The notes: generated from the sequence alone by a model not told the origin. A DNA stretch of 64,000 nt from Pyrinomonadaceae bacterium (GCA_035942855.1 DASZCS010000012.1:33198-97197), one strand, 5' to 3'. Shown: positions 20,684-47,829, counted from the stretch's first letter. Translations and numbers: made by a program.

Positions 20684-20712
20684 AAGGCCGAGTTTCCAAA
20701 GCCCCGGCAGGG

Positions 20713-23350: not shown

Positions 23351-25462
23351 ATGGAAGCAACGGCCGTCGGCCAAAAGCCCGCGCAACTCGATAACCTCTG
23401 CGTCAACACCATCCGTACACTCTCGATGGACGCCGTGCAGGCGGCCAACTCCGGCCACCCCGGCACGCCTATGGCGATGGCTCCCGTCGCCTACCTGCTC
23501 TGGAACGAAATCATGCGTTTCGATCCGGAAGACCCCATCTGGCCGAACCGCGACCGCTTCGTCCTCTCGATGGGGCACGCCTCGATGCTGCTCTATTCGA
23601 TGCTGCACCTGACGGGCGTGAAAGCCGTCAACGCCAAGTACGAAACGACGGGGAAGCCCTCGGTCGAACTGGACGACATCAAGAACTTTCGTCAACTCGA
23701 CAGCCGTTGTCCCGGTCACCCTGAGTACCGCTGGACTTCCGGCATCGAGACGACCACGGGGCCGCTCGGTCAGGGCATCGCCACGAGCGTCGGCATGGCG
23801 ATCGCCTCGAAGTGGCAGGCGGCCTACTTCAACCGCCCCGGCTTCGAGATGTTCGACTACAACGTCTACGCCCTGTGCGGCGACGGCTGTATCATGGAAG
23901 GCATCTCGCACGAAGCCGCATCCTTAGCCGCCCACCTCAAACTCGACAACCTCTGCTGGATTTACGACAACAACAAGATCACGATTGAGGGCAACACCTC
24001 CTGGGCGTTCTCCGAAGACGTGGCGACGCGCTTCATCGGCTACGGCTGGAACGTCACGCGCGTCGGCGATGCCAACGACCTCGAAACACTGAAGCGCGCC
24101 TTCCAGGTCGCGCGCAAAGAGACCGACCGGCCGACCCTCATCATCGTCGATAGCCATATCGCGTGGGGTGCGCCCAACAAACAGGACACGCACGCAGCGC
24201 ACGGCGAACCGCTCGGCGAAGAAGAGATCAAGTTGACCAAGCGCAACTACGGCTGGCCGGAAGACGAGAAGTTCTTAGTGCCCGACGAAGTGCGCGAGCA
24301 TTTCCGGCAAGGCATCGGCGCGCGCGGCAAACAGGCGCGCGACGAGTGGTTCGCCAAAGTCGAAGCCTATCGCGCAGAGTATCCGGAGTTGGCCGACCAA
24401 CTCGTCCGCATGCAGAAGCGCGAACTGCCCGAAGGTTGGGACAAAGACATCCCCACTTTCCCGGCGGACGCGAAAGGCATGGCCGGGCGCGACGCTTCGG
24501 GCAAAGTCCTGAACGCCATCGCCAAAAACGTCCCGTGGTTCATCGGCGGCTCGGCCGACCTCGCGCCCTCCACAAAGACGCGCCTGACCTTCGAAGGCGC
24601 GGGCGATTTCACGGGCGAAGACGATCAGGAACGGGGGCGCTGGTACGGCGGTCGCAACTTCCACTTCGGCATACGCGAGCACGAGATGTCGGCCATCTTG
24701 AACGGCCTCTCGCTCTCGAAGATTCGCCCCTACGGTTCGGGCTTCATGATCTTCTCAGACTATTCGCGCCCCGCAATCCGTCTGTCTGCGATCATGGAAA
24801 TTCCGACCATCCACATCTTCACGCACGACTCCATCGGCGTCGGCGAAGACGGCCCCACGCACCAACCCATCGAACAACTCGCCAGCATGCGCGCCATCCC
24901 CGGCCTCATCGTGATGCGCCCCGGCGACGCCAACGAGATCGCAGAGGCTTGGCGCGTCGTGATGGGACTCCGCCACGAACCGGCCGTGATGGTCTTGAGC
25001 CGGCAGGCGATGCCGACCCTCGACCGCACGAAATACGCGTCCGTCGAAGGCGTGCGCCGCGGCGCATACGTCCTTGCGGACAACGCGGGCGAGGGCAACC
25101 AGCCCGAAGTCATCCTGATCGGCACGGGCACGGAAGTCGGCCTCGCCGTCGAGGCTTACGAACGACTCGCGGCCGAAGGCGTCAAGGCGCGCGTCGTCAG
25201 TATGCCGTCGTGGGAAATCTTCGAGCATCAGGACGAGGCTTACAAGGAGAGCGTGTTGCCTGCGGCGGTCAAGGCGCGCGTGGCAGTCGAGCAGGCGGGC
25301 ACGTTCGGCTGGCGTCGCTACGCGAGCAGCAACGAAGCCATCATCGGCATGAAGACCTTCGGCGCGAGCGCGCCGCTCAAAGAGTTGACCAAGAAATTCG
25401 GCTTCACCGTGGACAACGTGGTCGAGACGGCGAAACGCGAAATAGAGAAGTTTAGAGGTTAG
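23351..25462 (+). CDS. tkt: transketolase
   Basis: GHPGTPMAMAPVAYLLW, LCGDGCIMEGISHEAASLA and full-length collinearity. AAGGAG lies 9 nt upstream of the ATG. Confidence 0.95.
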   Translation: MEATAVGQKPAQLDNLCVNTIRTLSMDAVQAANSGHPGTPMAMAPVAYLLWNEIMRFDPEDPIWPNRDRFVLSMGHASMLLYSMLHLTGVKAVNAKYETTGKPSVELDDIKNFRQLDSRCPGHPEYRWTSGIETTTGPLGQGIATSVGMAIASKWQAAYFNRPGFEMFDYNVYALCGDGCIMEGISHEAASLAAHLKLDNLCWIYDNNKITIEGNTSWAFSEDVATRFIGYGWNVTRVGDANDLETLKRAFQVARKETDRPTLIIVDSHIAWGAPNKQDTHAAHGEPLGEEEIKLTKRNYGWPEDEKFLVPDEVREHFRQGIGARGKQARDEWFAKVEAYRAEYPELADQLVRMQKRELPEGWDKDIPTFPADAKGMAGRDASGKVLNAIAKNVPWFIGGSADLAPSTKTRLTFEGAGDFTGEDDQERGRWYGGRNFHFGIREHEMSAILNGLSLSKIRPYGSGFMIFSDYSRPAIRLSAIMEIPTIHIFTHDSIGVGEDGPTHQPIEQLASMRAIPGLIVMRPGDANEIAEAWRVVMGLRHEPAVMVLSRQAMPTLDRTKYASVEGVRRGAYVLADNAGEGNQPEVILIGTGTEVGLAVEAYERLAAEGVKARVVSMPSWEIFEHQDEAYKESVLPAAVKARVAVEQAGTFGWRRYASSNEAIIGMKTFGASAPLKELTKKFGFTVDNVVETAKREIEKFRG

Positions 25463-25587
25463 AGGTCAGAGGTTAGAGGTCGGTAAAAAAATATAGGCAA
25501 GAATATGAGTAGCCGGTCGGCGGCCATCGGTCGGAGGTCAGTGTAAGCCAATCTTTACTAACCTCTGACCTCTAACCTCTGACCTCT
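25454..25587. repeat. heptamer-array palindrome, AGAGGTY family (tkt / tal-pgi spacer)
   Basis: Left arm is AGAGGTT AGAGGTC AGAGGTT AGAGGTC. Right arm is ACCTCTG ACCTCTA ACCTCTG ACCTCT. The loop is about 80 nt. The tkt stop codon TAG lies inside the first units. Confidence 0.85.
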
Positions 25588-25604
25588 GCGACGAAGGAGC
25601 AAAC

Positions 25605-28472
25605 ATGAGTAACCCCCTTGTGGAAATTATGAAACTCGGCCAGTCCATCTGGTACGACAACATCCGCCGAGCGATGCTGATCAGCGGCGATTTGACGAAG
25701 AAGATCGAGGAGGACGACCTGCGCGGCGTGACCTCCAACCCGACCATTTTCGAGAAGGCAATCACCGGCTCGAACGACTACGACGAGCAGTTGCGCCAAC
25801 TCGTGCAGGCCGGAAAAGGCGTCTCCGAGATTTATGAAGACCTCGTGGTGGACGACATCGGGCGAGCCGCAGACATCCTCAAGCCGGTCTACGACAAGAC
25901 CGACGGCATCGACGGCTACATCAGTCTCGAAGTCAATCCCGGCCTCGCCTACAAGACGCAGGAGACGATTGACGAGGCCGACCGCCTCTTCAAACGGCTC
26001 GGCCGCAAGAATGTGATGATCAAGATTCCGGCGGCGCAGGAAGGCTTGCCCGCCATCGAGGAATGCATCTATCGCGGCATCAACGTCAACGTCACGATGA
26101 TCTTCTCGATTGAGAATTACGAGCAGGTGGCCGACGCCTTCATACGCGGCCTCGAACGCCGCGACGCCGAAGGCAAGCCTGTGGATCACATCGCCTCAGT
26201 CGCCAGTTTCTTCGTCTCGCGCGTGGATTCGGCCATCGACACAGACCTCGAATACAAAGCGCGCCACGCCTCTTCGCCCGAAGAGAAGGCGCGGCTCGAA
26301 GGCATGTTAGGCAAGGCGGCGATTGCGAACGCGAAACTCGCCTACGCGAAGTACAAAGAGATTTTCCACGGCGAGCGTTTCGCGCCGCTCCGTGCGAAGG
26401 GCGCGCAGGTGCAACGTCAACTGTGGGCTTCGACCGGCACGAAGAATCCGAAATATTCCGACGTGCTTTACGTTGACAACCTGATCGGCCCGGAGACGGT
26501 CAACACCGTCCCGCCCGCCACCTACACGGCCATCCGCGACCACGGCACGCCGAAGCTCACGCTCGAAGAGGGCTTGGACGAAAGCCGTCAACTCTTCGAC
26601 GACCTACGCGGCGTCGGCATCGACATCAAGGCCGTCACCGAGAAGTTGCAGAAGGACGGTTTGAGTTCCTTCGTCACCTCGTTCGACACCTTGGCCGAGT
26701 CAATCGAATCGAAGCGCGACGCGATCCTCTCGGGGATCAACGAGCGTCTGACGGCCAGTTTGGGGAAGTATAGCGACGCGGTCACGGCGGCGATCAAGGA
26801 AGCGGACAAGGGCGACGTGATGCGCCGCATCTGGCGCAAGGACGCGGCGCTCTGGAAGTCGGAAGAGGCGCACCAGAAGATCATCAAGAACGCGCTCGGC
26901 TGGTTGACCGTGCCCGACATGATGATCGGCGTCGAAGACGACCTCGTGCAGTTTGCCGACCGCATTAGGAACGTCCGCGAGTTCAAGCACACGATGGTCT
27001 GCGGCATGGGCGGTTCGTCCCTGTGCCCGGAAGTTTTGCGCCAGACGTTCGGCAAGCAGGAAGGCTATCCCGAACTGCTCGTCCTCGATTCGACCGACCC
27101 CGACGCCTTCTCGGACATCGCCGATCAGATCGACATCACGAAATGCCTCTTCATCATCTCGTCGAAGTCGGGCACGACGACCGAGCCGCTCGTCTTCTAC
27201 AAGTATTGGTACGATCAGGTCGGGAAGCGCAAAGAGAATCCCGGTGAGTGCTTCGTGGCCGTCACCGATCCGGGGACGCTCATGGAGCAGATGGCGACCG
27301 ACGACAAGTTCAAGCGCATCTTCCTGAATCCGGCCGACATCGGCGGGCGCTATTCGGCGCTCTCCTACTTCGGCATGGTTCCGGCCGCGCTGATGGGCCT
27401 GGACGTGAAGAAACTGTTAGACCGCGCCGAACGCGTCGTGCACGCCTGCGCATCGGTCGTCCCGGCGACGGAAAATCCCGGCGCGCGTCTCGGCGCGATC
27501 ATGGGCGAGTGTGCCAATGCCGGACGCGACAAGTTGACCATCAGCACCGATCCACGGATCGCTTCGTTCGGCCTGTGGGTCGAGCAGCTGTTGGCCGAAA
27601 GCACGGGCAAGGACGGCAAAGGCATCGTGCCCGTGGCGGGCGAAACGCTCGGCTCGCCTTCCGTCTACGGCGACGACCGCCTGTTCGTACACATCAGTGT
27701 CGAGAAGATCGACAGCGAGACCGAAGCGAAGTTGAAGGCGCTGGAAGCGGCCGGACACCCGGTCGTTTATCGCACGCTGACAGACCTCTACGACCTCGGC
27801 GAAGAGTTTTTCCTCTGGGAGATCGCGACGGCCTTTGCGGGCTGGCGTCTCGGCATCAACCCGTTCGACCAGCCGAACGTGCAGGAGTCGAAAGACGCCA
27901 CGAAGGAACTTCTGGAAACCTTCTCGCGCGACGGGAAACTCCCCGAACAGGAAGTGCTCGCCACGGACGGCGTCATCACCATCTACGCCGACGAACAGAC
28001 GCGCAAGGAACTGGCGAGTGATTCGGTCGGCGCAGCGATCAAGGCGCACCTGGCGCGCGCCGGGGCTGGCGACTACATCGCCCTGCTCGACTATTTCGAG
28101 GAGACGCCCGAATACGAAAAGGTCATCCAGTCGATTCGCACGCACCTGCGCGACACGACGCGCTGCGCCACGACCACGGGGTACGGGCCGCGCTTCCTCC
28201 ATTCGACCGGACAGTTGCACAAGGGCGGTTCGGCCGCCGGAGTCTTCCTGCAACTGACCGCGCCGGACATCAAGGATTTACCGATTCCGGGGCAGCCTTA
28301 CACTTTCAGCACTTTGAAACAGGCGCAGGCGCTCGGCGATTTCCGCTCGCTCTCGACGCGCGGCCGCCGCGCCATCCGCGTCGATCTCGGCGCGGACGTA
28401 CAAGCCGGACTCAACCGCCTCCAGGAGTTGATCGGCCAAGCCCTTCCACGCTCCGGCGCGACAGGAGCTTAA
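25605..28472 (+). CDS. tal-pgi: bifunctional transaldolase / glucose-6-phosphate isomerase
   Basis: The N-terminal transaldolase part has GVTSNPTIF and the Schiff-base lysine context VMIKIPA. The C-terminal PGI part has FIISSKSGTTTEP and GGRYSALS. Total length is 955 aa. Confidence 0.9.
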   Translation: MSNPLVEIMKLGQSIWYDNIRRAMLISGDLTKKIEEDDLRGVTSNPTIFEKAITGSNDYDEQLRQLVQAGKGVSEIYEDLVVDDIGRAADILKPVYDKTDGIDGYISLEVNPGLAYKTQETIDEADRLFKRLGRKNVMIKIPAAQEGLPAIEECIYRGINVNVTMIFSIENYEQVADAFIRGLERRDAEGKPVDHIASVASFFVSRVDSAIDTDLEYKARHASSPEEKARLEGMLGKAAIANAKLAYAKYKEIFHGERFAPLRAKGAQVQRQLWASTGTKNPKYSDVLYVDNLIGPETVNTVPPATYTAIRDHGTPKLTLEEGLDESRQLFDDLRGVGIDIKAVTEKLQKDGLSSFVTSFDTLAESIESKRDAILSGINERLTASLGKYSDAVTAAIKEADKGDVMRRIWRKDAALWKSEEAHQKIIKNALGWLTVPDMMIGVEDDLVQFADRIRNVREFKHTMVCGMGGSSLCPEVLRQTFGKQEGYPELLVLDSTDPDAFSDIADQIDITKCLFIISSKSGTTTEPLVFYKYWYDQVGKRKENPGECFVAVTDPGTLMEQMATDDKFKRIFLNPADIGGRYSALSYFGMVPAALMGLDVKKLLDRAERVVHACASVVPATENPGARLGAIMGECANAGRDKLTISTDPRIASFGLWVEQLLAESTGKDGKGIVPVAGETLGSPSVYGDDRLFVHISVEKIDSETEAKLKALEAAGHPVVYRTLTDLYDLGEEFFLWEIATAFAGWRLGINPFDQPNVQESKDATKELLETFSRDGKLPEQEVLATDGVITIYADEQTRKELASDSVGAAIKAHLARAGAGDYIALLDYFEETPEYEKVIQSIRTHLRDTTRCATTTGYGPRFLHSTGQLHKGGSAAGVFLQLTAPDIKDLPIPGQPYTFSTLKQAQALGDFRSLSTRGRRAIRVDLGADVQAGLNRLQELIGQALPRSGATGA

Positions 28473-28478
28473 TTGAAA

Positions 28479-28569
28479 GGATGAGGGATGAGGGATGAGG
28501 GATGAACAAGAAAGTAGCTGCTCTCTTGGGTCGTTCTAATTCATCCCTCATCCTTCATCCCTCATCCCC
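28479..28569. repeat. heptamer-array palindrome, GGATGAG family (tal-pgi / gnd spacer)
   Basis: Left arm is (GGATGAG)x3 GGATGAA. Right arm is TTCATCC CTCATCC TTCATCC CTCATCC CC. No U-tract follows. Confidence 0.85.
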
Positions 28570-28590
28570 TTAATTGAGTGAGGAAATTTT

Positions 28591-30042
28591 ATGTCTACAC
28601 CTGAACAGACTACTAAGACGGCGAAGATCGGCATGATCGGCCTGGGCGTGATGGGCGAGAACCTGGCGCGCAACATCGAGCGCAACGGCTATTCCATCGC
28701 CGTCTGGAACCGCGAGCCGGCCAAAGTTGACGAGTTCGTCGAACGTTTGGAAGGCCATCAAGTGATCGGCGCGCACACGCCCGAAGAGTTCGTGAAATCT
28801 CTGGAGCGACCGCGCAAAGCGATCCTGCTCGTCAAAGCGGGACAGCCCGTGGATTGGACGGTCGATCAGATCAAGCCCTTCATGGAAGAAGGCGACATCA
28901 TCATCGACGGCGGCAACTCCTATTTCCAGGACACCGAGCGGCGCGAGAAGGATTTGAAGGCGCAGGGCTTCAACTTCATCGGCTCCGGCGTCTCCGGCGG
29001 CGAGAAGGGCGCTCTGTGGGGGCCTTCGCTGATGCCCGGCGGCGACCGTCAGGCCTACGAGCAGATTCGGCCGATCTGGGAAGCCATCGCCGCGAAAGTT
29101 GACGACGGCCCGTGCGTCACCTACATCGGCCCCGGCGGCGCGGGTCACTTCGTCAAGATGGTGCACAACGGCATCGAGTACGGCGACATGCAACTCATTG
29201 CCGAAGCCTATGACCTGATGCGCACCGTTCTCGGCATGGAAGCGCAAGAGATGGCCGACGTGTTCGACGAATGGAACCGTGGCGATCTCGAATCGTTCCT
29301 CATCGAGATCACCGCGCAGATTTTGCGCGTGAAGGACGAAGAGACCGGCAAGCCTCTGGTTGACCTCGTGCTCGACAAGGCGGGGCAGAAGGGCACCGGC
29401 AAGTGGACTTCCGACATCGCGCTCGACCTCGGCATAGTCACCCCGACGATTGACGCGGCCGTGGACACGCGCAACCTGTCCGCGCGCAAAGAGGAACGCG
29501 TCGAAGCCTCGAAGCAGATCAAAGGGCCGGAGCGCGCTAAGTTTTCGGGCGACCGCAAAGAGATGGTGCAGGCCATCCACGATGCGCTCTACGCCTCGAA
29601 AATCTGCTCCTACGCGCAGGGCATGAATCTCATCCGCGCCGGATCGGACGCCTACAACTGGAACATCGACCTCGGCGAATGTTCGCGCATCTGGAAAGGC
29701 GGCTGCATCATCCGCGCGCAGTTCCTCGACAAGATCAAGCAGGCGTACCAGCGCCGCGCAGACTTGCCGAACCTCCTGCTCGATCCAGATTTCAACGCGT
29801 GGGTCGAACAGGCGCAGCCCAACTGGCGGCGCGCCGTTTCAACCGCCATCCAGACGGGCGTGGCCGTGCCCGGCATGTCCGCCAGCATCGGCTACTTCGA
29901 CACCTATCGCACGGCCAACCTGCCGCTGAATCTGACGCAGGCGCAGCGCGACTTCTTCGGCTCGCACACCTACGAGCGCGTCGATAAACCCGGACAAGAA
30001 CCCGTCCACACCGAGTGGGAAGAGATGCTCAAGAAAGGATGA
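28591..30042 (+). CDS. gnd: 6-phosphogluconate dehydrogenase (decarboxylating)
   Basis: IGMIGLGVMGENLARN, DGGNSYFQDT and GSGVSGGEKGALWGPSLMPGG. Confidence 0.95.
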   Translation: MSTPEQTTKTAKIGMIGLGVMGENLARNIERNGYSIAVWNREPAKVDEFVERLEGHQVIGAHTPEEFVKSLERPRKAILLVKAGQPVDWTVDQIKPFMEEGDIIIDGGNSYFQDTERREKDLKAQGFNFIGSGVSGGEKGALWGPSLMPGGDRQAYEQIRPIWEAIAAKVDDGPCVTYIGPGGAGHFVKMVHNGIEYGDMQLIAEAYDLMRTVLGMEAQEMADVFDEWNRGDLESFLIEITAQILRVKDEETGKPLVDLVLDKAGQKGTGKWTSDIALDLGIVTPTIDAAVDTRNLSARKEERVEASKQIKGPERAKFSGDRKEMVQAIHDALYASKICSYAQGMNLIRAGSDAYNWNIDLGECSRIWKGGCIIRAQFLDKIKQAYQRRADLPNLLLDPDFNAWVEQAQPNWRRAVSTAIQTGVAVPGMSASIGYFDTYRTANLPLNLTQAQRDFFGSHTYERVDKPGQEPVHTEWEEMLKKG

Positions 30043-30138
30043 GGCGGAGGGATGAGGGATGAGGGATGAGGGATGAATAAAAACTGCTCAAGCAGTTGAA
30101 TCATTCCGGTTTATCCCTCATCCCTCATCCCTCATCCC
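30037..30138. repeat. heptamer-array palindrome, GGATGAG family (gnd / zwf spacer)
   Basis: Left arm is GGATGAG GCGGAG (GGATGAG)x3 GGATGAA. Right arm is TTATCC (CTCATCC)x3 C. The gnd stop TGA (30040-30042) is the TGA of the first unit. Confidence 0.85.
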
Positions 30139-30147
30139 TTAACTATC

Positions 30148-31695
30148 ATGTCTGCCATATTACAGGAGAACCCTTTGCGAGCGGGCGTGCGTCTGGAACG
30201 CACCGCAGAGCCGTGCGTGGTCGTGATCTTCGGCGCGACCGGCGATTTGACGAAGCGCAAACTCGTGCCCGCGCTCTATCGTCTCGTGCAGGAACGGCTC
30301 GTGCCCGCCGAGTTTGCCATCGTCGGCGCGGCGCGTTCAGAACTCTCGAGCGAAGAGTTTCGCGCGAACATGAAAGAGGCTGTCGCGCAGTTTTCCGAAG
30401 CCAAGAGCGTCGATGAAGAGGTATGGGAATCCTTCGCGCAAGGGTTGCACTACCAGAAAGTTGACATCGGCACGAGCGAAGACTACACGAAGCTCGGCGA
30501 ACTGCTCGAACGCATCGATGGCGAGCGCGGCACGCAGGGCAACCGCGTCTTTTATCTCTCGACCGCGCCCGCGCTCTACGCCGAGGCCGTCCGCCAACTC
30601 GGCAATGCGGGTCTCGCAAAGCCGGAAGAGGGCAAGGGCTGGGTGCGCGTCATCATCGAGAAGCCCTTTGGGACAGACCTCGCCAGCGCGCAGGCTTTGA
30701 ACCGCGACATACATCAACATCTGGACGAGTCGCAGATTTATCGCATCGACCATTATCTCGGTAAAGAGACGGTACAAAACCTGCTCGTCTTCCGTTTCGC
30801 CAACGGCATCTACGAGCCACTCTGGAATCGGCAGTACATCGACCACATACAGATCACGAACGCCGAGACGGTGGGCGTCGAGGGGCGCGGCGGCTACTAC
30901 GAGAAGGCGGGCGTGGTGCGCGACATGTTGCAGAACCACGTCTTTCAGGTTCTCTCGCTCGTGGCGATGGAACCGCCCGCGAGTCTCAACTCCGAGTCGG
31001 TGCGCGACGAGAAGATCAAGGCCATGACTGCGGTTCGCCCGTTTACGCCCGAACGCATCCGCGCAGAGTGTGTGCGCGGGCAATACGGCGCAGGCTCAAT
31101 TAACGGCAAGGGCGTGCCGGGCTACCGCGAGGAAGAGGGCGTCGCGCCGGATTCGGCCACAGAGACTTACGCCATGCTCACGATGTACTTCGACAACTGG
31201 CGCTGGTCGGGCGTGCCCTTCTACATCCGTTCGGGCAAGCGACTCGCCAAGCGCGTCACGGAGATCGCCATCCAGTTCAAAGACGCGCCGCATCGTCTCT
31301 TCGGCTCGGAGATGATGGAGCAGATGACGCCGAACCAACTGATCATCCGCGTCCAGCCAGACGAAGGCATCACGATGCGCGTCGCGGCCAAAGTGCCGGG
31401 ACAGGTCACGCGCATCCGCGACGTGAACATGGATTTTCGCTACGGCGCGTCCTTCGGCGTCCAACTGGCCGAAGCCTACGAACGTCTTTTGCTCGACTGC
31501 ATCCTCGGCGACCCGACTCTCTACGCGCGCACCGACATGACCGAGCGCGGCTGGGAGATCGTGATGCCCATCCTCGAAGAATGGGCGGCCACGAAAGCCG
31601 AAGCGCCGTTCCCCAACTACGAAGCCGGAACGTGGGGGCCGCAAGCCTCGCACGATCTACTCGAACGCGCCGGACGCCGCTGGCGCAGACCGTAA
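30148..31695 (+). CDS. zwf: glucose-6-phosphate 1-dehydrogenase
   Basis: VIFGATGDLTKRKL, RIDHYLGKE and MLQNHVFQVLSLVAMEPP. Confidence 0.95.
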   Translation: MSAILQENPLRAGVRLERTAEPCVVVIFGATGDLTKRKLVPALYRLVQERLVPAEFAIVGAARSELSSEEFRANMKEAVAQFSEAKSVDEEVWESFAQGLHYQKVDIGTSEDYTKLGELLERIDGERGTQGNRVFYLSTAPALYAEAVRQLGNAGLAKPEEGKGWVRVIIEKPFGTDLASAQALNRDIHQHLDESQIYRIDHYLGKETVQNLLVFRFANGIYEPLWNRQYIDHIQITNAETVGVEGRGGYYEKAGVVRDMLQNHVFQVLSLVAMEPPASLNSESVRDEKIKAMTAVRPFTPERIRAECVRGQYGAGSINGKGVPGYREEEGVAPDSATETYAMLTMYFDNWRWSGVPFYIRSGKRLAKRVTEIAIQFKDAPHRLFGSEMMEQMTPNQLIIRVQPDEGITMRVAAKVPGQVTRIRDVNMDFRYGASFGVQLAEAYERLLLDCILGDPTLYARTDMTERGWEIVMPILEEWAATKAEAPFPNYEAGTWGPQASHDLLERAGRRWRRP

Positions 31696-31699
31696 AAGC

Positions 31700-31790
31700 G
31701 GTGAATGGTAAATGGTAAATGGTGAATAGAAGAAGACACGTTTTATCCATTCGCCGTTTACCATTCACCATTTACCATTCACCATTTACC
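31700..31790. repeat. heptamer-array palindrome, GGTRAAT family (zwf / opcA spacer)
   Basis: Left arm is GGTGAAT GGTAAAT GGTAAAT GGTGAAT. Right arm is TTTACC ATTCACC ATTTACC ATTCACC ATTTACC. Confidence 0.85.
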
Positions 31791-31800
31791 AAGTGATTTT

Positions 31801-32964: not shown

Positions 32965-32994
32965 TCGAATCTGAAATACGCAATTTTCAAAGAT

Positions 32995-33972: not shown

Positions 33973-34032
33973 TGCTCCTTAGGCGACAGGGCGCACCGGA
34001 AAACGTCTGTCTCCGATTCACTTTAACTTTCC

Positions 34033-34809
34033 TTGAAGATTATGCCAGCCGACGAACAGGCGACTCCGAACTTTCAAATCTACGCCAACGCCGAAGAGGT
34101 GGCGCGCGCCGCCGCTCATCGCTTCGCCGAACTCGCACGCGGGAACATCGGGGGCAACGGGCGTTTCAGCGTCGCGCTCGCGGGCGGTTCGACGCCCAAA
34201 CGAATCTACGAACTCCTCGCCACCGAAGACGTCGGCGCGGAAGTTGACTGGTCGAACGTCCACATCTTTTTCGGCGACGAACGCACCGTCCCGCCCGACC
34301 ACAACGACAGCAACTATCGCATGGCGAACGAGGCGCTCTTATCTCGCGTCGGGCTGCCGCCCGAAAACATCCACCGCATGCGCGGCGAGGGCGATGCGGT
34401 TGCCAACGCGCGTCTCTACGAAGACGAACTGCGCGGCTACTTCGGCGACGATGCCGCGTGGCCTGAGTTCGACCTCATGATGCTCGGCATGGGCGACGAC
34501 GGCCACACCGCCTCCCTCTTTCCGGGCACACACGCGCTCGACGTGCATGCGGCGTGGGTCACGGCCAACTGGGTCGAAAAGTTCGACACCTATCGCGTCA
34601 CGCTGACCGCGCCCGCCATCAACCACGCGCGGCAGGTGATGTTCATCGTCACGGGCGCGGGCAAGGCCGAGCGCCTGCTGGAAGTCTTGCACGGCGCGCA
34701 CGAGCCGCACCGTCTGCCTTCACAACTCATACGCCCGCGCACAGGCGCGCTCACATGGTTTCTCGACGAAGCCGCCGCAGCGAAACTCTCAAGAAAGGAC
34801 GAGGGATGA
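34033..34809 (+). CDS. pgl: 6-phosphogluconolactonase
   Basis: ALAGGSTPKRIYE, FFGDERTVPPDHNDSNY and MLGMGDDGHTASLFPG. The ATG at 34042 is an alternative start. The last codons (..KDEG stop) are encoded by the following repeat. Confidence 0.9.
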   Translation: MKIMPADEQATPNFQIYANAEEVARAAAHRFAELARGNIGGNGRFSVALAGGSTPKRIYELLATEDVGAEVDWSNVHIFFGDERTVPPDHNDSNYRMANEALLSRVGLPPENIHRMRGEGDAVANARLYEDELRGYFGDDAAWPEFDLMMLGMGDDGHTASLFPGTHALDVHAAWVTANWVEKFDTYRVTLTAPAINHARQVMFIVTGAGKAERLLEVLHGAHEPHRLPSQLIRPRTGALTWFLDEAAAAKLSRKDEG

Positions 34810-34887
34810 GGGATGAGGGATGAAAGGGAACGAGCAAAGGAAGCAAGTGCTTCTCTTGTTCATCCCTCATCCCTTATCCCTCATCCC
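34796..34887. repeat. heptamer-array palindrome, GGATGAG family (pgl / rpiB spacer)
   Basis: Left arm is GGACGAG GGATGAG GGATGAG GGATGAA. Right arm is TTCATCC CTCATCC CTTATCC CTCATCC C. The left flank CTCAAGAAAGGA is identical to the flank of the 30037 copy. Confidence 0.85.
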
Positions 34888-34895
34888 TAACTTCT

Positions 34896-35366: not shown

Positions 35367-35404
35367 TTGGCTCGCACGTCGTTAGTTGACCTCGCAAGTA
35401 TGAA

Positions 35405-35503
35405 GTTCACGCAAAGGCGCGAAGACGTGAAACGCGAAGGCGCAAAGGAGAATTTGATTTAACTTTGCGTCTTGCTTTTAACCTTTACGCCTTTGCGTGA
35501 AAC
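35405..35503. repeat. nested palindrome, CGCAAAGG family (rpiB / GH63 spacer)
   Basis: TTCACGCAAAGGCG (35406-35419) pairs with CGCCTTTGCGTGAA (35488-35501). An inner pair CGCAAAG / CTTTGCG is also present. It shares 14- and 15-mers with the element at 52685-52777. Confidence 0.75.
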
Positions 35504-35544
35504 TGTTTTAACTAAACTTCTGAAGCCCGAATCTCAAAACTTCC

Positions 35545-38214
<2,670 letters not shown>

Positions 38215-38220
<6 letters not shown>

Positions 38221-38247
38221 AAGAGAAGTGAAAGAGAAGTGAAAGAG
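38215..38247 (+). repeat. tandem 11-mer (AAGTGAAAGAG)x3 at the end of the GH63 gene
   Basis: Three perfect units. The GH63 stop TGA (38218-38220) is in unit 1. I saw no inverted partner. Confidence 0.85.
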
Positions 38248-38381
38248 ATTTAGCCTGTCAGAACGTTGAAGGCTTCGCCGCCCCCGGAAAAAATCGCTTG
38301 ATACGTTTGCCCGCGGCTTCGCGCGTTAATTAGTGAAGCCGGAAATTTCCGCCGCTCAAAGCGAAAGAAGGGCAAACTAAA

Positions 38382-39146
38382 ATGGCGTCTCTCAAGATAA
38401 TCCCCGCCGATGTTCCGCGCATCGCGATTCCCAAAACGCTCTCCTACCTGCTCGCCTTTCTGCTGCTTGAATTCACCTGCATGCAGGCTCACGAGTTAAT
38501 TCATCATTTGACGGGGCGACTGGTTTGCGGCGCGTGGGGGACAATGACGTTCAACCTGTTCTATCTCGCCCCCGAATGCTTTGAGACGAAAAAGATCGCT
38601 CTGCTTTCGACTTTCGCCGGGCCTGCGCTCAGTTATTTCCTGATGTGGGCGGGGATGCTGCTGGTCTTGAAAAACAGGGGCGGGCTGTTCGGTCTTTCTT
38701 TGATCTTCGCCAACCTGCCCTTCGCGCGTTTTATCAGCGTGGTGATGGCGCGCGGTGATGAGATGTTGATCGGGCGACGGCTCATCGGAGAGGGCGCTTA
38801 TCCGCTCGTCTTGGGCGCGGTGGTGCTGATTCTTTTGCCGCCTTTGCTTGTGGCGCAGAAAGCGATTGCCAACAAACGTCGCTGGTCGATTTTCCTGAGC
38901 TTTCTGCTCTTAACGCTCGCCTACGACGCGCTCACTAAGCGCGTGCTGCTCGCGCCGCTGATTGATCGTTGGGAACTGTTCGCGTCGAATGTTTTCGGCA
39001 TCCCACTCTTCATCGTCTGCGTCGATGTTGCTGTGTTGCTCGCCCTCGCCTGTTTCAGCCCTGATCTCTACGAGCGGAAAAAACTCGGCAGGCCGGCAAG
39101 CAACGGACGAGTGCTGGATAAATCGGTCGTGATGCAGAATTCATAA
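38382..39146 (+). CDS. hypothetical polytopic membrane protein with an HExxH motif
   Basis: About 6 hydrophobic segments. HELIHH sits right after the first TM segment, giving a zincin-like signature. No further support. Confidence 0.5.
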   Translation: MASLKIIPADVPRIAIPKTLSYLLAFLLLEFTCMQAHELIHHLTGRLVCGAWGTMTFNLFYLAPECFETKKIALLSTFAGPALSYFLMWAGMLLVLKNRGGLFGLSLIFANLPFARFISVVMARGDEMLIGRRLIGEGAYPLVLGAVVLILLPPLLVAQKAIANKRRWSIFLSFLLLTLAYDALTKRVLLAPLIDRWELFASNVFGIPLFIVCVDVAVLLALACFSPDLYERKKLGRPASNGRVLDKSVVMQNS

Positions 39147-39186
39147 CGAAGCCGGTCTGCGTAGATGGCAGACGCAATCTTCCCAC

Positions 39187-39214
39187 GGGTGCGGCCGCTT
39201 CAACGGCCGCACCC
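39187..39214. terminator. GC-rich hairpin between convergent genes
   Basis: GGGTGCGGCCG / CTTCAA loop / CGGCCGCACCC. The T-run on the plus side is only weak (ATCTT). Confidence 0.4.
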
Positions 39215-39267
39215 ATCTTAAGTTCTTAAGCTAATTCGGAATTTCCCGCGAGGGCGCAGGCGGCGGC

Positions 39268-41367: not shown

Positions 41368-41546
41368 GGGGGTCTTAATGGCGGCAGCTATCGCGGGTCG
41401 GGGATCAGTTTAAGGGTTGACAAACACACGACCGAGCGCGTGCGATTGTAACCTCAGCCCTCTGGGCGGTCAATCTTCTTCTGAACGTCGCGCGAGCGGC
41501 CTCGGAACCTGCGCGACAGCATTTCGCAAATACATCCTCGCTAATC

Positions 41547-41575
41547 TTGACTAAAAAGTAAGGTATCCGTATAAT
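41547..41575 (+). promoter_or_regulatory. near-consensus sigma-70 promoter of the suf operon
   Basis: TTGACT (41547-41552), a 17-nt spacer, then TATAAT (41570-41575), about 43 nt upstream of the Rrf2 ATG. Confidence 0.65.
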
Positions 41576-41617
41576 CTCTTGCGTATCCTGATAATTGCTG
41601 ATGTTGGAGCGATTTAC

Positions 41618-42097
41618 ATGAAAGTCTCCGCACAGGAAGAATATGGCTTACGATGCCTGTTGCAACTCGCGCCGCTCGGCGAGGGCGAATATTTGACGCT
41701 GACGCAGATCGCCGAGCGCGAGGGCATTTCGACGGCCAACGCGGGCAAGTTGCTCTGGATTTTGAATAAAGCCGGCCTGGTGTCTTCGATTCGCGGCACG
41801 AAAGGCGGGTATCGGCTGGCGCGTCCCGCCTCCGAGATTCACCTGGACGAAATCATCAAGGTGCTCGACGAAGACGTGCTGGCGAGCCATTGCAACAGCT
41901 ACACGGGCATCCTCGATGCCTGCGTGCACACGGGCAACTGCGGCATCCGCCCCGTTATCGTCGGCCTGCATGACGTGGTGCGACGTGCGATGGCAAGCAT
42001 CACACTGGCGCAGCTTTTGGGTACGGAGTCGAACGTCGAGACGACGCTCTACAAGATCAATTCGCTGTCGCGCGAGACGACGCACAAGGGCGCTTGA
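41618..42097 (+). CDS. Rrf2-family transcriptional regulator (IscR/SufR-like)
   Basis: MKVSAQEEYGLRCLLQLA..LTLTQIAEREGIS..LNKAGLVSSIRGTKGGYRLARP, and a Cys cluster CNSYTGILDACVHTGNC suited to an Fe-S ligand set. GGAG lies 8 nt upstream of the ATG at 41618. Confidence 0.85.
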   Translation: MKVSAQEEYGLRCLLQLAPLGEGEYLTLTQIAEREGISTANAGKLLWILNKAGLVSSIRGTKGGYRLARPASEIHLDEIIKVLDEDVLASHCNSYTGILDACVHTGNCGIRPVIVGLHDVVRRAMASITLAQLLGTESNVETTLYKINSLSRETTHKGA

Positions 42098-42163
42098 GAG
42101 GTTTCGTGCGAAGCGCGGCCGGGACTATAAAGTTCAAGTCAAAGGGTAGAAGAAGAGACGAAG

Positions 42164-43600
42164 ATGAGTTCAATCGAATTACTGACCAACAAAGAATATA
42201 AGTACGGGTTTGTGACCGACATCGAGTCGGACATGATCCCGCGCGGGCTGAACGAAGAGACGATCCGTTTGATCTCCGCGAAGAAGAACGAGCCGGAGTT
42301 CATGCTCGAATTTCGTCTGAAAGCCTATCGCAACTGGCTGAAGATGGAAGAGCCTGTGCACTGGCCGAACATCACCTATCCGAAGGTGGATTATCAGGAC
42401 ATCATCTATTACAGCGCGCCCAAGCAGAAGGCCACGAAGGCGAGCATGGACGAGGTTGACCCCGAGTTGATTCGCACGTTTGAGAAACTCGGCATCCCGC
42501 TCTCCGAGCAGAAGCAACTGGCGGGTGTCGCCGTCGATGCCGTCTTCGATTCCGTCTCCGTGGCGACGACCTACAAAGAGAAGCTCAAGAAGCACGGCGT
42601 CATCTTCTGCTCGTTTTCGGAAGCGGTGCAGGAGTACCCGGAACTCATCAAGAAGTATCTCGGCACGGTTGTGCCTTCGAACGACAACTACTTCGCGGCC
42701 TTGAACAGCGCGGTCTTCACAGACGGGTCGTTCGTCTTCATCCCGCGAGGCGTGCGCTGCCCCATGGAGTTGTCCACCTATTTCCGCATCAACAACTCGG
42801 AATCAGGCCAGTTCGAACGCACGCTGATCGTCGCCGAAGAAAATTCGCACGTCTCTTACCTCGAAGGCTGCACCGCGCCGCGTTTCGACAAGAATCAACT
42901 GCACGCGGCCGTGGTCGAACTCATCGCTCTGGACGACGCAGAGATCAAATATTCGACCGTGCAGAACTGGTACGCGGGCGACGAAGAGGGCGTGGGCGGC
43001 ATTTACAATTTCGTCACCAAGCGCGGCGCGTGTCGCGGGCGCAATTCGAAAATCTCCTGGACGCAGGTTGAGACGGGTTCGGCCATCACCTGGAAATATC
43101 CTTCCTGCATCCTGCAGGGCGACAATTCCATCGGCGAGTTTTATTCCGTCGCGCTCACGAACCACGCGCAGCAGGCCGACACGGGTACGAAGATGATCCA
43201 CATCGGGCGCAACACGCGCTCGAACATCGTCTCGAAAGGTATCTCTGCCGGAAAGTCGAACAACAGCTATCGCGGTCTCGTGAAAGTGCTGGCCGGGGCT
43301 GAGGGCGCGCGCAATTACACGCAATGCGATTCGCTACTCGTCGGCGACAAGTGCGGCGCGAACACGTTTCCATATATCGAAGTGTCGAACAACACGGCGA
43401 AGGTCGAGCACGAGGCGACCACCTCGCGTATCAGCGAGGAGCAGTTGTTCTACCTGCGCCAGCGCGGCATCTCGCAGGAAGATGCCGTCTCGCTCATCAT
43501 CAACGGTTTCTGCAAAGACGTTTTCCGCGAACTGCCGATGGAGTTCGCCGTCGAAGCGCAACGACTGCTCGGCCTGAAACTTGAGGGCAGCGTTGGATAA
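42164..43600 (+). CDS. sufB: Fe-S cluster assembly scaffold SufB
   Basis: 478 aa with a typical SufB sequence ([31 protein letters not shown]) and suf operon context. Confidence 0.95.
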
Positions 43601-43603
43601 AGC

Positions 43604-43687
43604 AGAGGTTAGAAGTCAGAGGTTAGAGGTCAGTTAAAAACCACGAACTGATTTTTACTAGCCTCTGATCTCTAATCTCTGACCTCT
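43604..43687. repeat. heptamer-array palindrome, AGAGGTY family (sufB / sufC spacer), degenerate
   Basis: Left arm is AGAGGTT AGAAGTC AGAGGTT AGAGGTC AG. Right arm is CTAGCCTCT GATCTCT AATCTCT GACCTCT. Several arm differences are G-U compatible on the plus-strand RNA. Confidence 0.75.
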
Positions 43688-43707
43688 ATATTTACGGAGT
43701 AAATATT

Positions 43708-44487
<780 letters not shown>

Positions 44488-44558
44488 GGCGTGCAGACGT
44501 TCGAGTGTAAAGCCGCGCGCGAATTGACAGGTCGAGTTTCGAGAAAGTTTTCAAGAGG

Positions 44559-45902
44559 ATGATGGTGGCACAAGCGACGAAAGAGAAGAGTTCTTACCGC
44601 GCCGCGTTCGACGCCTTGCAGGTGGAAGACGCGCCGATGCTTCCCGCGTGGGTGCTACGCCTGCGCGAGACCGCGCTGGAGCGTTTCGAGCAGGTGGGTT
44701 TTCCGACTACGGACGTTGAGGATTGGAAGTACACGAACGTCGCCCCGATTGCGAAAGGCGATTTCACGCCGTTCGCGTCCGCCGCAGACGGCGAGTTGAA
44801 CGCGGAACAGTTGTCGGCTTTCCTGGCCGAAGAGGCGGCGAGTCGTCTGGTCTTCGTCGACGGGATTTATCGGGCGGAGTTTTCCGCGCAAGGGAACTTG
44901 CCTGCGGGCGTCGTCGTCGCGGATTTTGCGACTGCGTTCGGGGGCGAGCACGAGACGTTGCTGCGCACCTATCTCGCGCGCCCGGACAAGACCGAAATGG
45001 ACGGCTTCAACGCGCTCAACGCCGCGTTCCTGCGCAGCGGCGCGCTCGTCTACCTGCCCAAAGGCGCGCAGGTGACGGAGCCGATACAACTGCTGTTTCT
45101 CTCGACAGAGACCACGCAACCGGCGGCCGTCTTCCCGCGCGTGCTCGTCGTGGCCGAACGCGAGAGCGCGGCGACCATCATCGAGAGCTACGCGGCAGTC
45201 GCCGACCAGTCGCGCTCGCTGACGAACGCCGTGGTCGAAGTCTTCGTCGGCGAGAACGCGCGCCTGACGCATTACAAAGTGCAGCGCGAAAGCGATGCGG
45301 CGTTCCACATCGCCTCGACCGATGCGGAACTCGAACGCAGCGGCGTCTATGATCTGACGACCATCACGCTCGGCGCGCAGTTGTCGCGCCACGGCATCAA
45401 TGTGCGGCTCGCGCATGAAGGCGCGGAGTGTTGGGTTGATGGACTCTACCTCGTCGGCACGGGACAGCACGCCGACACGCATTCCCTCATCGACCACATC
45501 AGTCCGCACTGCACCAGTCATCAACTTTACAAAGGCATCCTCGACGGCAAATCGCGCGCCGTCTTCAACGGCAAGGTCTTTGTCCGGCGCGACGCGCAAC
45601 AGACGGACGCGCAGCAGTCGAACAAGAATTTGTTGCTGTCAAATGAGGCGCGCGTCGATACCAAGCCGCAACTGGAAATCTTCGCCGACGATGTGAAATG
45701 TTCGCACGGCGCAACCGTCGGCCAACTGGAAGAGGAAGAACTGTTCTACCTCGTCAGTCGCGGCCTGCACGCAGACCTCGCGCGCAATTTGTTGACCTAC
45801 GGCTTTGCCGAAGAGCTGGTCGAGAAGATCAAGATCGAGTCGATCAAGCGACAGTTGGACGAAGCGATCCTGAATCGTCTGCACGCGCGGCTCGAAGCGT
45901 AG
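44559..45902 (+). CDS. sufD: Fe-S cluster assembly protein SufD
   Basis: 447 aa between sufC and sufS. The C-terminal region (CSHGATVGQLEEEELFYL) is SufB/SufD-family. Confidence 0.9.
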   Translation: MMVAQATKEKSSYRAAFDALQVEDAPMLPAWVLRLRETALERFEQVGFPTTDVEDWKYTNVAPIAKGDFTPFASAADGELNAEQLSAFLAEEAASRLVFVDGIYRAEFSAQGNLPAGVVVADFATAFGGEHETLLRTYLARPDKTEMDGFNALNAAFLRSGALVYLPKGAQVTEPIQLLFLSTETTQPAAVFPRVLVVAERESAATIIESYAAVADQSRSLTNAVVEVFVGENARLTHYKVQRESDAAFHIASTDAELERSGVYDLTTITLGAQLSRHGINVRLAHEGAECWVDGLYLVGTGQHADTHSLIDHISPHCTSHQLYKGILDGKSRAVFNGKVFVRRDAQQTDAQQSNKNLLLSNEARVDTKPQLEIFADDVKCSHGATVGQLEEEELFYLVSRGLHADLARNLLTYGFAEELVEKIKIESIKRQLDEAILNRLHARLEA

Positions 45903-45905
45903 AAC

Positions 45906-47201
45906 TTGAAACTGAACGTTATGATTGCGACTGAGAAAGCTATGGCGGCTGAGAGACAAGCGGGTGTGAACGAGAGCGCGGCCGTATGGGACGTGGCGCG
46001 CGTGCGTGCGGATTTTCCTGTGTTGGGGCAGACGGTGAACGGGAAGCCGCTCGTCTATCTGGACAACGCGGCCTCTTCGCAAGTGCCGCAGATGGTGATC
46101 GAGCGCGGCAGTCGATACCTGCGCGAGGAACATTCCAACATCCACAGGGGCGTGCATTACCTGAGCCAGCGCGCGACGACCGCTTATGAGGGCGCGCGCG
46201 AGAAGGTGCGTCGCTTCATCAACGCGCGCGAATCGCGCGAGTGCATCTTCGTGCGCGGCTGCACCGAGGGGATCAATCTCGTCATGCACGGCTACGGGCG
46301 CAAGTTCGTCTCTGCGGGCGACGAGATCATCGTGTCGGCGATGGAGCATCACGCGAACATCGTCCCCTGGCAGATGCTCTGCGAAGAGAAGGGCGCGACG
46401 CTTCGCGTCATCCCGATGAACGACGCGGGCGAACTGTTGTTGGACGAGTACGAGGCGCTTTTGAACGAGCGGACGAAACTCGTCTGCGTGATGCACGTCT
46501 CGAACGCGCTCGGCACGATCAACCCGGTCAAAGAGATCATCGCGCGCGCGCACAAGCAGGGCGTGCCCGTCCTTGTCGATGGAGCGCAGGGCGCACCGCA
46601 CCTTACCATCGACGTGCAGGATTTGGACGCGGATTTCTACATCATCTCCGGCCACAAGATGTTTGCGCCCACGGGCAGCGGCGTCGTCTACGGCAAGGCC
46701 GAACTGTTGGAGCGGATGAACCCCTTTCTCGGCGGCGGCGACATGATCCGCACCGTCACGTTTGAGAAGACGACCTATGCGGGCTTGCCGAACAAATTCG
46801 AGGCGGGCACTCCGGCCATCGCCTCGCAGATCGGACTCGGCGCGGCGATCGACTATCTGAACTCGCTCGACCGCAACAGCGCGCACGCTTACGAACAGGA
46901 GTTGCTCGCCTATGCGACCGAGAAGTTGTCGCAGATTGAAGGCGTCCGCATCGTCGGTACGGCGCGCGAGAAGGTGGGCGCGCTCTCGTTCGTCATCGAA
47001 GACGTGCACCCGCACGACGTGGGCACGATTCTGGATCAGGAAGGCATCGCTATCCGCGCCGGTCATCACTGCGCGCAGCCCGTGATGAAACGTCTCGGCG
47101 TCCCGGCCACGGCGCGCGCCTCCTTCTCCTTCTACAACACGAAGGAAGAGATCGACACGCTGGCAAACGCGGTGCAGAAAGTGATCGAGGTCTTTAGCTG
47201 A
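45906..47201 (+). CDS. sufS: cysteine desulfurase SufS
   Basis: VRADFPVL..YLDNAASSQ, PLP lysine context ISGHKMFAPTGSGV and catalytic Cys context RAGHHCAQP. The ATG at 45921 is an alternative start. Confidence 0.93.
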   Translation: MKLNVMIATEKAMAAERQAGVNESAAVWDVARVRADFPVLGQTVNGKPLVYLDNAASSQVPQMVIERGSRYLREEHSNIHRGVHYLSQRATTAYEGAREKVRRFINARESRECIFVRGCTEGINLVMHGYGRKFVSAGDEIIVSAMEHHANIVPWQMLCEEKGATLRVIPMNDAGELLLDEYEALLNERTKLVCVMHVSNALGTINPVKEIIARAHKQGVPVLVDGAQGAPHLTIDVQDLDADFYIISGHKMFAPTGSGVVYGKAELLERMNPFLGGGDMIRTVTFEKTTYAGLPNKFEAGTPAIASQIGLGAAIDYLNSLDRNSAHAYEQELLAYATEKLSQIEGVRIVGTAREKVGALSFVIEDVHPHDVGTILDQEGIAIRAGHHCAQPVMKRLGVPATARASFSFYNTKEEIDTLANAVQKVIEVFS

Positions 47202-47205
47202 AAAC

Positions 47206-47306
47206 GGTGAATGGTAAATGGTAAATGGTGAATGGAAAAAAACTGATTAGCTTCATTCACGATTTCCTGTCTTCAACCATTTACCATTGACCATTTACTA
47301 TTTACC
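47206..47306. repeat. heptamer-array palindrome, GGTRAAT family (sufS / sufU spacer)
   Basis: Left arm is GGTGAAT GGTAAAT GGTAAAT GGTGAAT GG. Right arm is CC ATTTACC ATTGACC ATTTACT ATTTACC. Confidence 0.85.
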
Positions 47307-47802: not shown

Positions 47803-47829
47803 GCGAGTTAATCACCATCACGAATTTGA

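Follow-up and report, generated by a model that had tools for sequence, protein, structure and literature searches.

Seven heptamer palindromes fill spacers of two operons

Within a 64,000-nt stretch of Pyrinomonadaceae bacterium (GCA_035942855.1, DASZCS010000012.1:33198-97197; this whole stretch is referred to as the window), seven long palindromes built from tandem heptamers, here called E1 to E7, occupy intercistronic spacers of the pentose-phosphate pathway (PPP) and suf operons. Comparison with related DNA indicates that they are probably dispersed, non-coding palindromic repeats of heptamer arrays, which lack target-site duplications (TSDs) and would be co-transcribed with their operons as long intercistronic hairpins. 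On this interpretation, they and the convergent GGGAATC pairs reported from Xanthomonas probably belong to one class, here constructed from other units.

Period-7 arrays of the window were located with Tandem Repeats Finder (TRF) and an inverted-repeat search, and each element was then read directly. All seven inverted arrays proposed in an initial annotation of this DNA were recovered as hairpins of 85-140 nt (Table 1), and its description of their anatomy, three unit families, co-directional placement and missing U-tract agreed with the repeat finders and with direct reading. The 5' arm consists of 3.7-5.4 tandem heptamers (TRF) and the 3' arm of complementary heptamers; the arms are 84-100% complementary and separated by 15-81 nt. 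One correction concerns the 3' arm of E4 (31742-31791), which contains approximately 6.4 units versus 4 in its 5' arm. The G-rich arm comes first (5') in 7/7 elements. GGATGAG is the sole window unit with G3 tracts, which are absent from GGTRAAT and AGAGGTY. RNA folding gave one long hairpin for each element, with free energies of -40.9 to -69.4 kcal/mol and z scores of -7.2 to -11.2, and 0 of 200 dinucleotide shuffles folded as well. The predicted main helices, 26-33 bp in length and usually extending into the "loop", are longer than the 20-28 bp initially assigned to them.

In the window, the stop codons of tkt (TAG), gnd (TGA) and pgl (TGA) fall inside the first units of the 5' arm, and those of tal/pgi, zwf, sufB and sufS lie 3-6 nt ahead of it, often as TAA or TGA followed by AAAGC. 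The distance from the 3' arm to the next start is 7-9 nt where there is no Shine-Dalgarno (SD) sequence (zwf, opcA, rpiB and sufU) and 16-22 nt where one is present (tal/pgi, gnd and sufC). Because the arms abut the stop codons and reach to start or SD distance, the elements fill the window spacers exactly.

By NCBIfam assignment, the two gene strings are tkt, tal/pgi, gnd, zwf, opcA, glk, pgl, rpiB and an Rrf2 regulator followed by sufBCDSU. Every period-7 inverted array of the window lies in these two operons, at 7/12 junctions versus 0/19 other co-directional junctions (Fisher p = 3e-4). Neither direct reading nor a terminator scan detected a U-tract after any of the seven elements, none of them passed the scan as a whole element, and no promoter-like sites were found inside them. 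A canonical terminator follows sufU (47828-47856; 13-bp stem, 3-nt loop, then TTTTTCTTTTT), which confirms the contrast drawn in the initial annotation between the elements and the end of the suf operon. As they contain no promoter, lack a U-tract and are located within the operons, we infer that the window copies are co-transcribed with the PPP and suf genes. A terminator function was rejected for these copies, since they have no U-tract and lie inside operons. Screening both strands of the 64 kb against Rfam at the gathering threshold gave 0 matches. A strong sigma-70-like promoter match (TTGACT-17-TATAAT, 11/12) is present at 41547-41575, directly upstream of the Rrf2-family gene heading the suf string, and a second sigma-70-like match occurs on the opposite strand (41473-41445).

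Table 1. Inverted heptamer arrays of the window, with flanking codons and predicted folding energies (dG, kcal/mol)
Element	Position	Unit family	Junction	Upstream stop	Next start	dG	z
E1	25453-25588	AGAGGTY	tkt / tal/pgi	TAG, 25460-25462, within the 5' array	ATG, 25605, preceded by AAGGAG SD after the 3' arm	-64.9	-7.2
E2	28468-28578 (heptamer array from 28479)	GGATGAG	tal/pgi / gnd	28470-28472	ATG, 28591	-68.9	-11.2
E3	30037-30140	GGATGAG, subfamily with ATTCAA..TTGAAT-type core	gnd / zwf	TGA, 30040-30042, inside the first unit	ATG, 30148, 8 nt past the stem, no SD	-69.4	-10.1
E4	31700-31791	GGTRAAT	zwf / opcA	31693-31695, then AAGC	ATG, 31801	-40.9	-8.1
E5	34797-34888	GGATGAG	pgl / rpiB	TGA, 34807-34809, inside the second unit	ATG, 34896, 7 nt past the stem, no SD	-64.6	-10.7
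E6	43603-43688	AGAGGTY	sufB / sufC	43598-43600	GTG, 43708, GGAG SD	-42.5	-7.8
E7	47206-47306	GGTRAAT	sufS / sufU	47199-47201	probable ATG, 47315, 8 nt past the stem	-41.3	-7.9

Inverted heptamer arrays extend beyond the window

We scanned 185,579 species genomes for inverted GGGATGA arrays with the pattern GGGATGAGGGATGA-N20-50-TCATCCCTCATCCC, and found them at no fewer than 117 genomic loci. Among the matches listed, 101/117 are in metagenome-assembled genomes (MAGs) of Acidobacteriota, mainly Pyrinomonadaceae, and 16/117 are spread over seven other phyla (Gemmataceae/Gemmata, Planctomycetaceae, Chloroflexia/Oscillochloris, Thermomicrobiales, Saprospiraceae/Bacteroidetes, Armatimonadetes/Chthonomonadaceae, Gemmatimonadaceae and two proteobacterial bins); contigs of 0.1-1.1 Mb harbor several of these 16 loci. 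Viral contigs carry three further GGGATGA copies, and the opposite arm order gave 0 there. The closest operon in metagenomes encodes a Gnd 92% identical to that of the window, and E3 shares 87% identity, in a comparison that takes in the loop, with an element from a Pyrinomonadaceae MAG (L078). Among exact protein matches, OpcA had one only on a 3-kb read-assembly (Logan) contig identical to the window and SufC had none, and among named loci there was no close ortholog. Together with the survey described below, these loci support the initial expectation that the elements are not restricted to the window.

General rules were derived from 1.3 Mb of related DNA, comprising the window and 165 loci (L numbers), using a period-7 array detector that is agnostic to the unit; an inverted partner was counted when it lay within 200 nt. 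Inverted partners were present for 290 of the 332 arrays (87%), giving 184 elements with approximately 43 different units, among them CAGTTTT, CAGTGGT, AAGTGAT, CGTAAAT, GATTTTG, GTTTCAG and AGTCTGG. The arms have a strong polarity. Among elements not selected by the search pattern, 78/80 have more G than C in the 5' arm, and the GGGATGA pairs are G-first in 128 cases versus C-first in 0. Since the element is palindromic, this polarity holds on both strands and is not a sense/antisense effect. A rare C-first exception, made of CATTGGA units, is found at 10370-10410 of L132. The number of units per arm is likewise regular, with a median of approximately four (4.0-4.1) in the GGGATGA family and in the other families alike.

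With respect to genes, 92 elements are co-directional, 25 convergent and 12 divergent (69%, 19% and 9%), and 5 are intragenic. Between co-directional genes the array begins a median of 3.5 nt after the stop codon (interquartile range, -5 to +6) and the next start follows the 3' arm by a median of 8-9 nt. Between convergent genes both stop codons abut the arms (medians 1 and 0 nt), and between divergent genes the elements are far from both starts. The median length of ordinary spacers between co-directional genes of this DNA is 7.5 nt, so that removal of an element would leave a normal spacer. A T-tract follows 15/92 co-directional elements (8/74 of those with a start within 25 nt and 7/18 of those with a distant start) and 15/50 convergent sides (30%).

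Two properties of the units themselves were considered and dropped. SD or anti-SD mimicry was suggested by GAGG, GAGGT and GGTGA in the three window units; most of the approximately 43 families (CAGTTTT, GTTTCAG, CGTAAAT and others) are not SD-like. Provision of stop codons in three frames as a selected property of the heptamers was also rejected, as 21/43 units contain a stop codon versus 24.6 +/- 2.9 for shuffled units.

Shared cores and rapid turnover suggest insertion

Elements at unrelated positions share more than their heptamers. E3 belongs to a subfamily with a variant second unit GGGCGGA (AGGGATGAGGGCGGAGGGATGA...), an A-rich/T-rich inner stem (ATAAGAAA...TTTCTTAT) and an apical ATTCAA...TTGAAT hairpin. 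We compared 19 copies of this subfamily, E3 included, from different MAGs. Flank homology joins just two or three pairs of them, and the subfamily is thus present at no fewer than 15 unrelated loci. Similarly, the inner stem of E1 (CAGTAAAAA/TTTTTACTA) is common to the AGAGGTY elements E6, L109 and L136, and CGTRAAT and GGTRAAT elements have a common loop, AGAAGAA..TTTTCTCT, across genomes. The left end TCAAGAAAGGAYGAGG is shared by E3 and E5 and encodes the ends of both upstream proteins (30027-30042 and 34789-34809). At E3, the Gnd terminus reads KKG in the window and EKQ in relatives. At E5, Pgl gains the tail SRKDEG; in relatives it stops after ...AAKL and is followed by a spacer of 13-21 nt.

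Comparison of orthologous operons revealed that occupancy varies among relatives at all PPP junctions, each being filled in some and vacant in others; a comparison of relatives for such presence/absence polymorphism had been suggested in the initial annotation. The spacer orthologous to that of E2 contains decayed GGATGAG arrays with a different loop (L119), GGATGAA units (L120) or 30-45 nt with no element (L124 and L128). The E4-orthologous spacer contains CGTRAAT in both arms (L119), AGTGRYG (L120), CAGTTTT (L128) or no element (L148/L155). In L126 (~3940) and L127 (~1386), gnd and zwf have no spacer and overlap by GTGA, a stop/start overlap that is the classic arrangement for translational coupling.

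Different elements also replace one another between very similar strains. The metagenome contigs L123 and L125 are 96% identical over 12 kb, yet the palindromes in their gnd/zwf spacers are unrelated, one being made of AGATGCT and the other of CAGGAGT units, with the two breaks in identity falling precisely on the stop codon and on the stem end. L121/L122 and L139 likewise have 99% identical flanks and different palindromes in the tal/pgi-gnd spacer. L121 (9885-9992), L122 and L138 carry GTAG-tagged, REP/REPIN-like palindromes (..GCGGTAGCGGGCGG..) upstream of gnd. L139 (9825-9992) has in place of the L121 type a 160-nt heptamer-like palindrome with the pyrimidine-rich arm first. In L110 (4621-4771), an AGTGATG palindrome has a CGTGAAT palindrome in its middle, and this nesting suggests insertion into hairpin apices. 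Of the four roles proposed initially, these comparative data favor that of a non-autonomous mobile element.

Several observations weigh against this interpretation. Direct repeats of 5 nt or more flank 8/181 elements versus 6.8 expected from a shuffled control, and the loci analysed yielded no autonomous partner, no mobilising enzyme and no composite element in which two arrays surround a gene. Most loops are unrelated between copies, an unusual situation if the copies were transposed. The changes seen between near-identical strains were all replacements, with no clean pair of an empty and a filled site. The same junctions hold different elements in several lineages, which could mean selection for a hairpin there, i.e., function rather than tolerance, and all seven window copies cluster in two operons. 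Finally, a part of the proposal taken up in the Discussion, that the G-first polarity may spare the exposure of a C-rich, G-poor stretch to Rho loading, is conjecture. A 9-nt sequence, CTTAATTGA, occurs on both sides of E2, a lone case.

Alternative explanations

The first alternative is that the elements are adaptive intercistronic RNA structures, in which hairpins are kept to set cistron levels as RNase III sites and/or 3' stabilisers, comparable to the malE-malF REP/BIME and the T7 early RNase III sites. Its appeal lies in the placement of the predicted 26-33-bp helices, which start 0-7 nt past the stop codon with no U-tract and are confined to two operons of the window, and in the behavior of the PPP junctions, which bear long hairpins of different sequence in several lineages, opcA/glk almost never doing so. 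Moreover, both arms change their unit together (GGTRAAT versus CGTRAAT; GGATGAG versus GGATGAA). Selection on the sense RNA should yield more G.U- than A.C-producing changes on the sense strand, and this was assessed for the 92 co-directional elements. Sense and antisense folds were equal (mean -49.3 versus -49.7 kcal/mol; Wilcoxon p = 0.52), as were the G.U pairs (161 versus 162), so that no excess of G.U-tolerated changes was observed. At each junction there are close relatives with no element or with no spacer at all, and the elements are not limited to co-directional settings, being found also within genes and between convergent or divergent ones. The strand symmetry and the presence/absence polymorphism argue against strong purifying selection on the sense RNA, which may still be hidden by the youth of the copies or by homogenisation at the DNA level. 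An adaptive origin is a possibility that we hold only tentatively.

It appears unlikely that the palindromes are grown locally with no transfer between loci, slippage making the heptamers and quasi-palindrome (template-switch) correction copying one arm onto the other. Slippage itself does act. Five extra CATTGGA units are present in one arm only in L132 (10370-10410) compared with L151 (2170-2186), the strains being 98% identical, and the L125 array contains two copies of a 14-mer that includes the end of gnd. The unrelated loops of most copies, the co-variation of the arms, the strand symmetry and the lack of a TSD would also be expected from local growth. It does not account for the recurrence of the same variant units, inner stems, cores and outer ends in different genomes at no fewer than 15 non-homologous loci, for wholesale replacement between 96-99% identical strains, or for nested elements and an identical unit in distant phyla.

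G-rich heptamers of Xanthomonas and Nostoc have been proposed to act as G-quadruplex or i-motif elements, in which four units provide four G-tracts. (GGGATGA)4 fits the G3N4 motif, and the four-unit mode is that reported by Rehm et al. (PMC4692102). As a general explanation, however, the G-quadruplex was rejected for 39/43 unit families. These have no G3 tract, GGTRAAT and AGAGGTY among them, and still contain approximately four units per arm. A complementary arm only 15-80 nt away would further compete by forming a hairpin of -40 to -70 kcal/mol. This explanation is improbable.

Similarly doubtful is hairpin-bridged translational coupling, in which the stem would bring stop and start together for reinitiation, or a ribosome at the stop would open the stem from its base and so expose the start region. 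The geometry is suitable: the medians are 3.5 nt from stop to stem and 8 nt from stem to start, no more than 12 nt separate stem and start in 46/67 cases, and the start is ATG in 51/67 overall. SD-like motifs follow elements at 10% of junctions versus 31% of control junctions; zwf, rpiB and sufU lack an SD sequence and opcA has no clear one, and element-free relatives have the GTGA overlap of gnd and zwf. However, the low SD frequency is largely forced by the G-free 3' arm, and with ordinary spacers of approximately 7.5 nt any tolerated insertion must abut both codons. Elements also lie between convergent genes (25) and upstream of distant starts, and in junctions with a long remaining spacer it is the stop, and not the start, to which the element keeps close.

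Terminators or attenuators that lack a U-tract, or that act conditionally and are melted by a single-strand protein binding the heptamers (a cold-shock protein, for instance), are very improbable, although the outer flanks are often AAAAGC...GCTTTT as in bidirectional terminators, T-tracts occur on convergent sides and before distant starts as noted above, and the G/T-rich 7-nt periodicity resembles CspB binding of one protein per heptamer (PMC4679880), because the seven window copies lack U-tracts inside operons that need read-through (sufBCDSU, zwf-opcA), T-tracts are rare at close-start junctions, and the stems and loops are far longer than canonical ones such as that at 47828-47856.

Other repeats in the window

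The window contains further repeats. Two long palindromes with the purine-rich arm first (17398-17507 and 18076-18188) flank the gene at 17506-18057 (- strand); one of them has arms of up to 42 nt that are 95% complementary. With TRF periods of 13-14 and 27-29 nt, the two palindromes may be related to the heptamer elements in degenerate form. Unpaired runs lie at or just after stop codons in two places: a tandem array of AAGTGAAAGAG x3 at 38215-38248, at the end of the gene at 35545-38220, and an AAGTGAC-like heptamer run at 52578-52610, after the gene at 50757-52574. The palindrome at 1334-1402, between convergent genes, is a perfect 31-bp stem with a 7-nt loop; it is not heptameric and has the opposite polarity, with the A/C-rich arm first. 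A different repeat family based on GCAAAG/CTTTGC motifs (TTTGCGCCTTTGCGTGAA) forms inverted intergenic pairs after rpiB (35406-35501) and before 52790 (52710-52776), and recurs upstream of gnd in L134, L136, L137 and L144. Nested G+C-rich palindromes (20703-20877) occupy a 319-nt co-directional spacer, with a perfect outer pair of 19 bp, inner arms of 27 nt and no Rfam match.

Discussion

Knowledge of heptamer repeats in bacteria dates from 1990 and that of their over-representation from 2007; to our knowledge, no function or origin has been established for them. The closest precedent is the study of Xanthomonas campestris and X. axonopodis by Rehm et al. (2015, PLoS One, PMC4692102), who described 70-75 convergent GGGAATC array pairs per genome with a mode of four units. 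These are 89-93% intergenic and nearer to the stop of the upstream ORF than to the next start, with ~65-70% between co-directional genes, 16% between convergent and 8% between divergent genes; they vary in length and sequence between Xcc and Xac at the same junction, and no function was found (PMC4692102). The elements described here share with them the four-unit heptamer arrays, the convergent G-rich strands with stem-loop or cruciform potential, the intergenic location near the upstream stop and a similar split of contexts. They differ in their units, which do not conform to GGGAATC/GGGANTN, in the coexistence of approximately 43 families, most of them without G-quadruplex potential, in the distance from array to stop (median 3.5 nt here versus mean 28 nt there), in the fraction of paired arrays (87% versus ~75%) and in the host phylum, as well as in shared non-heptamer cores, nesting and wholesale replacement. 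The initial claim that neither design nor units had been described thus stands for the units, which are absent from Rfam and from the searchable literature save two irrelevant eukaryotic papers, and falls for the design. A search of the literature on repeats of Acidobacteria and Pyrinomonadaceae gave nothing specific. What is new here is the units, the host phylum, the dozens of coexisting families, the families without G-quadruplex potential, the shared cores, the nesting and the replacement; the design itself is known though barely studied.

Other heptamer repeats are more distant. The STRR GGGGA(T/C)T of heterocystous cyanobacteria and the TAACTGA repeats of Beggiatoaceae, cyanobacteria and Bacteroidetes are also dispersed, mostly intergenic tandem heptamers with a patchy distribution across phyla (PMC4692102, PMC4679880). 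However, they are mainly single direct arrays, whereas most arrays here form inverted pairs and their relatives are found in Acidobacteriota MAGs; Nostoc has only "a few paired repeats" (PMC4692102). In Beggiatoaceae, the TAACTGA direct arrays lie upstream of start codons, with one inverted set in 170 (MacGregor 2015, PMC4679880), in contrast to the association with stop codons observed here.

REP hairpins, including those of BIMEs, are known to stabilise the upstream mRNA. Like the present elements, REP, BIME and REPIN sequences are dispersed, non-coding and hairpin-forming, occur in 3' untranslated and intercistronic regions without TSD and form long hairpins as doublets. Their arms, however, are unique sequences of 20-40 nt with a GTAG or CGTC head, and here the arms are heptamer arrays with no common head of that kind. 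Bacterial MITEs (miniature inverted-repeat transposable elements) are comparable in size (85-140 nt), inverted ends, lack of coding capacity and copy number, and can also rewrite gene ends. The present elements differ from them in having no TSD, no related autonomous insertion sequence in the loci analysed and, apart from the subfamilies with shared cores, loops that are mostly not conserved. Membership as REP, MITE or intrinsic terminator was rejected in each case on a tested defining feature (the GTAG/CGTC head, the TSD and the U-tract, respectively).

We propose that the elements arrive by insertion or replacement at the extreme 3' ends of genes and in short intercistronic spacers without target-site duplication, a mobility that would explain the comparative patterns. 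Their turnover is fast, and copies can nest in one another. Two design rules govern them, a G-rich arm at the 5' side on both strands and approximately four units per arm. Copying may be directed by hairpins or single-stranded DNA, as for REP/REPIN, or may proceed by recombination or template switching between copies, with slippage adjusting the number of units afterwards. The polarity may reflect this copying mechanism or, as mentioned above, avoidance of Rho.

Long helices between cistrons with no terminator function are known from the RNase III sites of T7 early mRNA, the malE-malF REP and the hairpins of the puf operon. RNase III accepts near-perfect RNA duplexes as substrates from a length of 20 bp, and decay of the PNPase and RNase II type is blocked by hairpins at the 3' end. 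In the mRNA, the predicted 26-33-bp helices would extend from a few nucleotides after the upstream stop to 7-20 nt before the next start, and their length exceeds the approximately 20 bp of near-perfect duplex cited for RNase III. By analogy, they would be expected to act as a barrier to 3'-5' exonucleases and as a substrate of RNase III, segmenting the polycistronic mRNA and causing differential stability. Thus, the elements in RNA most plausibly work like the T7, malE-malF and puf helices, which are single, conserved and experimentally mapped, whereas the elements here are repetitive, polymorphic and predicted. RNase III/E processing, 3' stabilisation and translational insulation, all proposed initially as roles, are plausible consequences of a helix of this predicted size. 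In our proposal such RNA effects would be side-effects tolerated by selection rather than the reason for the elements, and copies would survive only where they are harmless.

A broader and more speculative reading is that heptamer-array palindromes constitute one phylum-spanning superfamily of mobile or self-copying elements without TSD, encompassing those of Acidobacteriota, Planctomycetota, Chloroflexota, Bacteroidota, Armatimonadota and Xanthomonas. Its machinery would target gene 3' ends and hairpin apices and would set the 7-nt period, the number of four units in each arm and the strict G-first polarity, which looks like a pair of G-strand arrays whose 5'->3' synthesis converges. If this is true, the GGGAATC pairs of Xanthomonas and the present elements share a mechanism and not a G-quadruplex function.

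The inverted heptamer form is common well outside Xanthomonas, and it follows simple rules for which the G-quadruplex idea does not account: the G-rich arm comes first, each arm has approximately four units, and stop codons directly adjoin the arrays. Its behavior is insertion-like, as gene ends are rewritten and elements are swapped between near-identical strains, and the polarity, the nesting, the shared cores and the lack of TSD provide handles on the mechanism. For the annotation of these genomes, C-terminal tails and stop codons can be repeat-derived, and 100-nt "spacers" within operons are to be read as repeats and not as regulatory DNA. Should the helices be cleaved by RNase III or obstruct exonucleases, the stoichiometry of central pathways such as the PPP and Fe-S cluster assembly would be shaped by them in abundant, little-studied soil bacteria.

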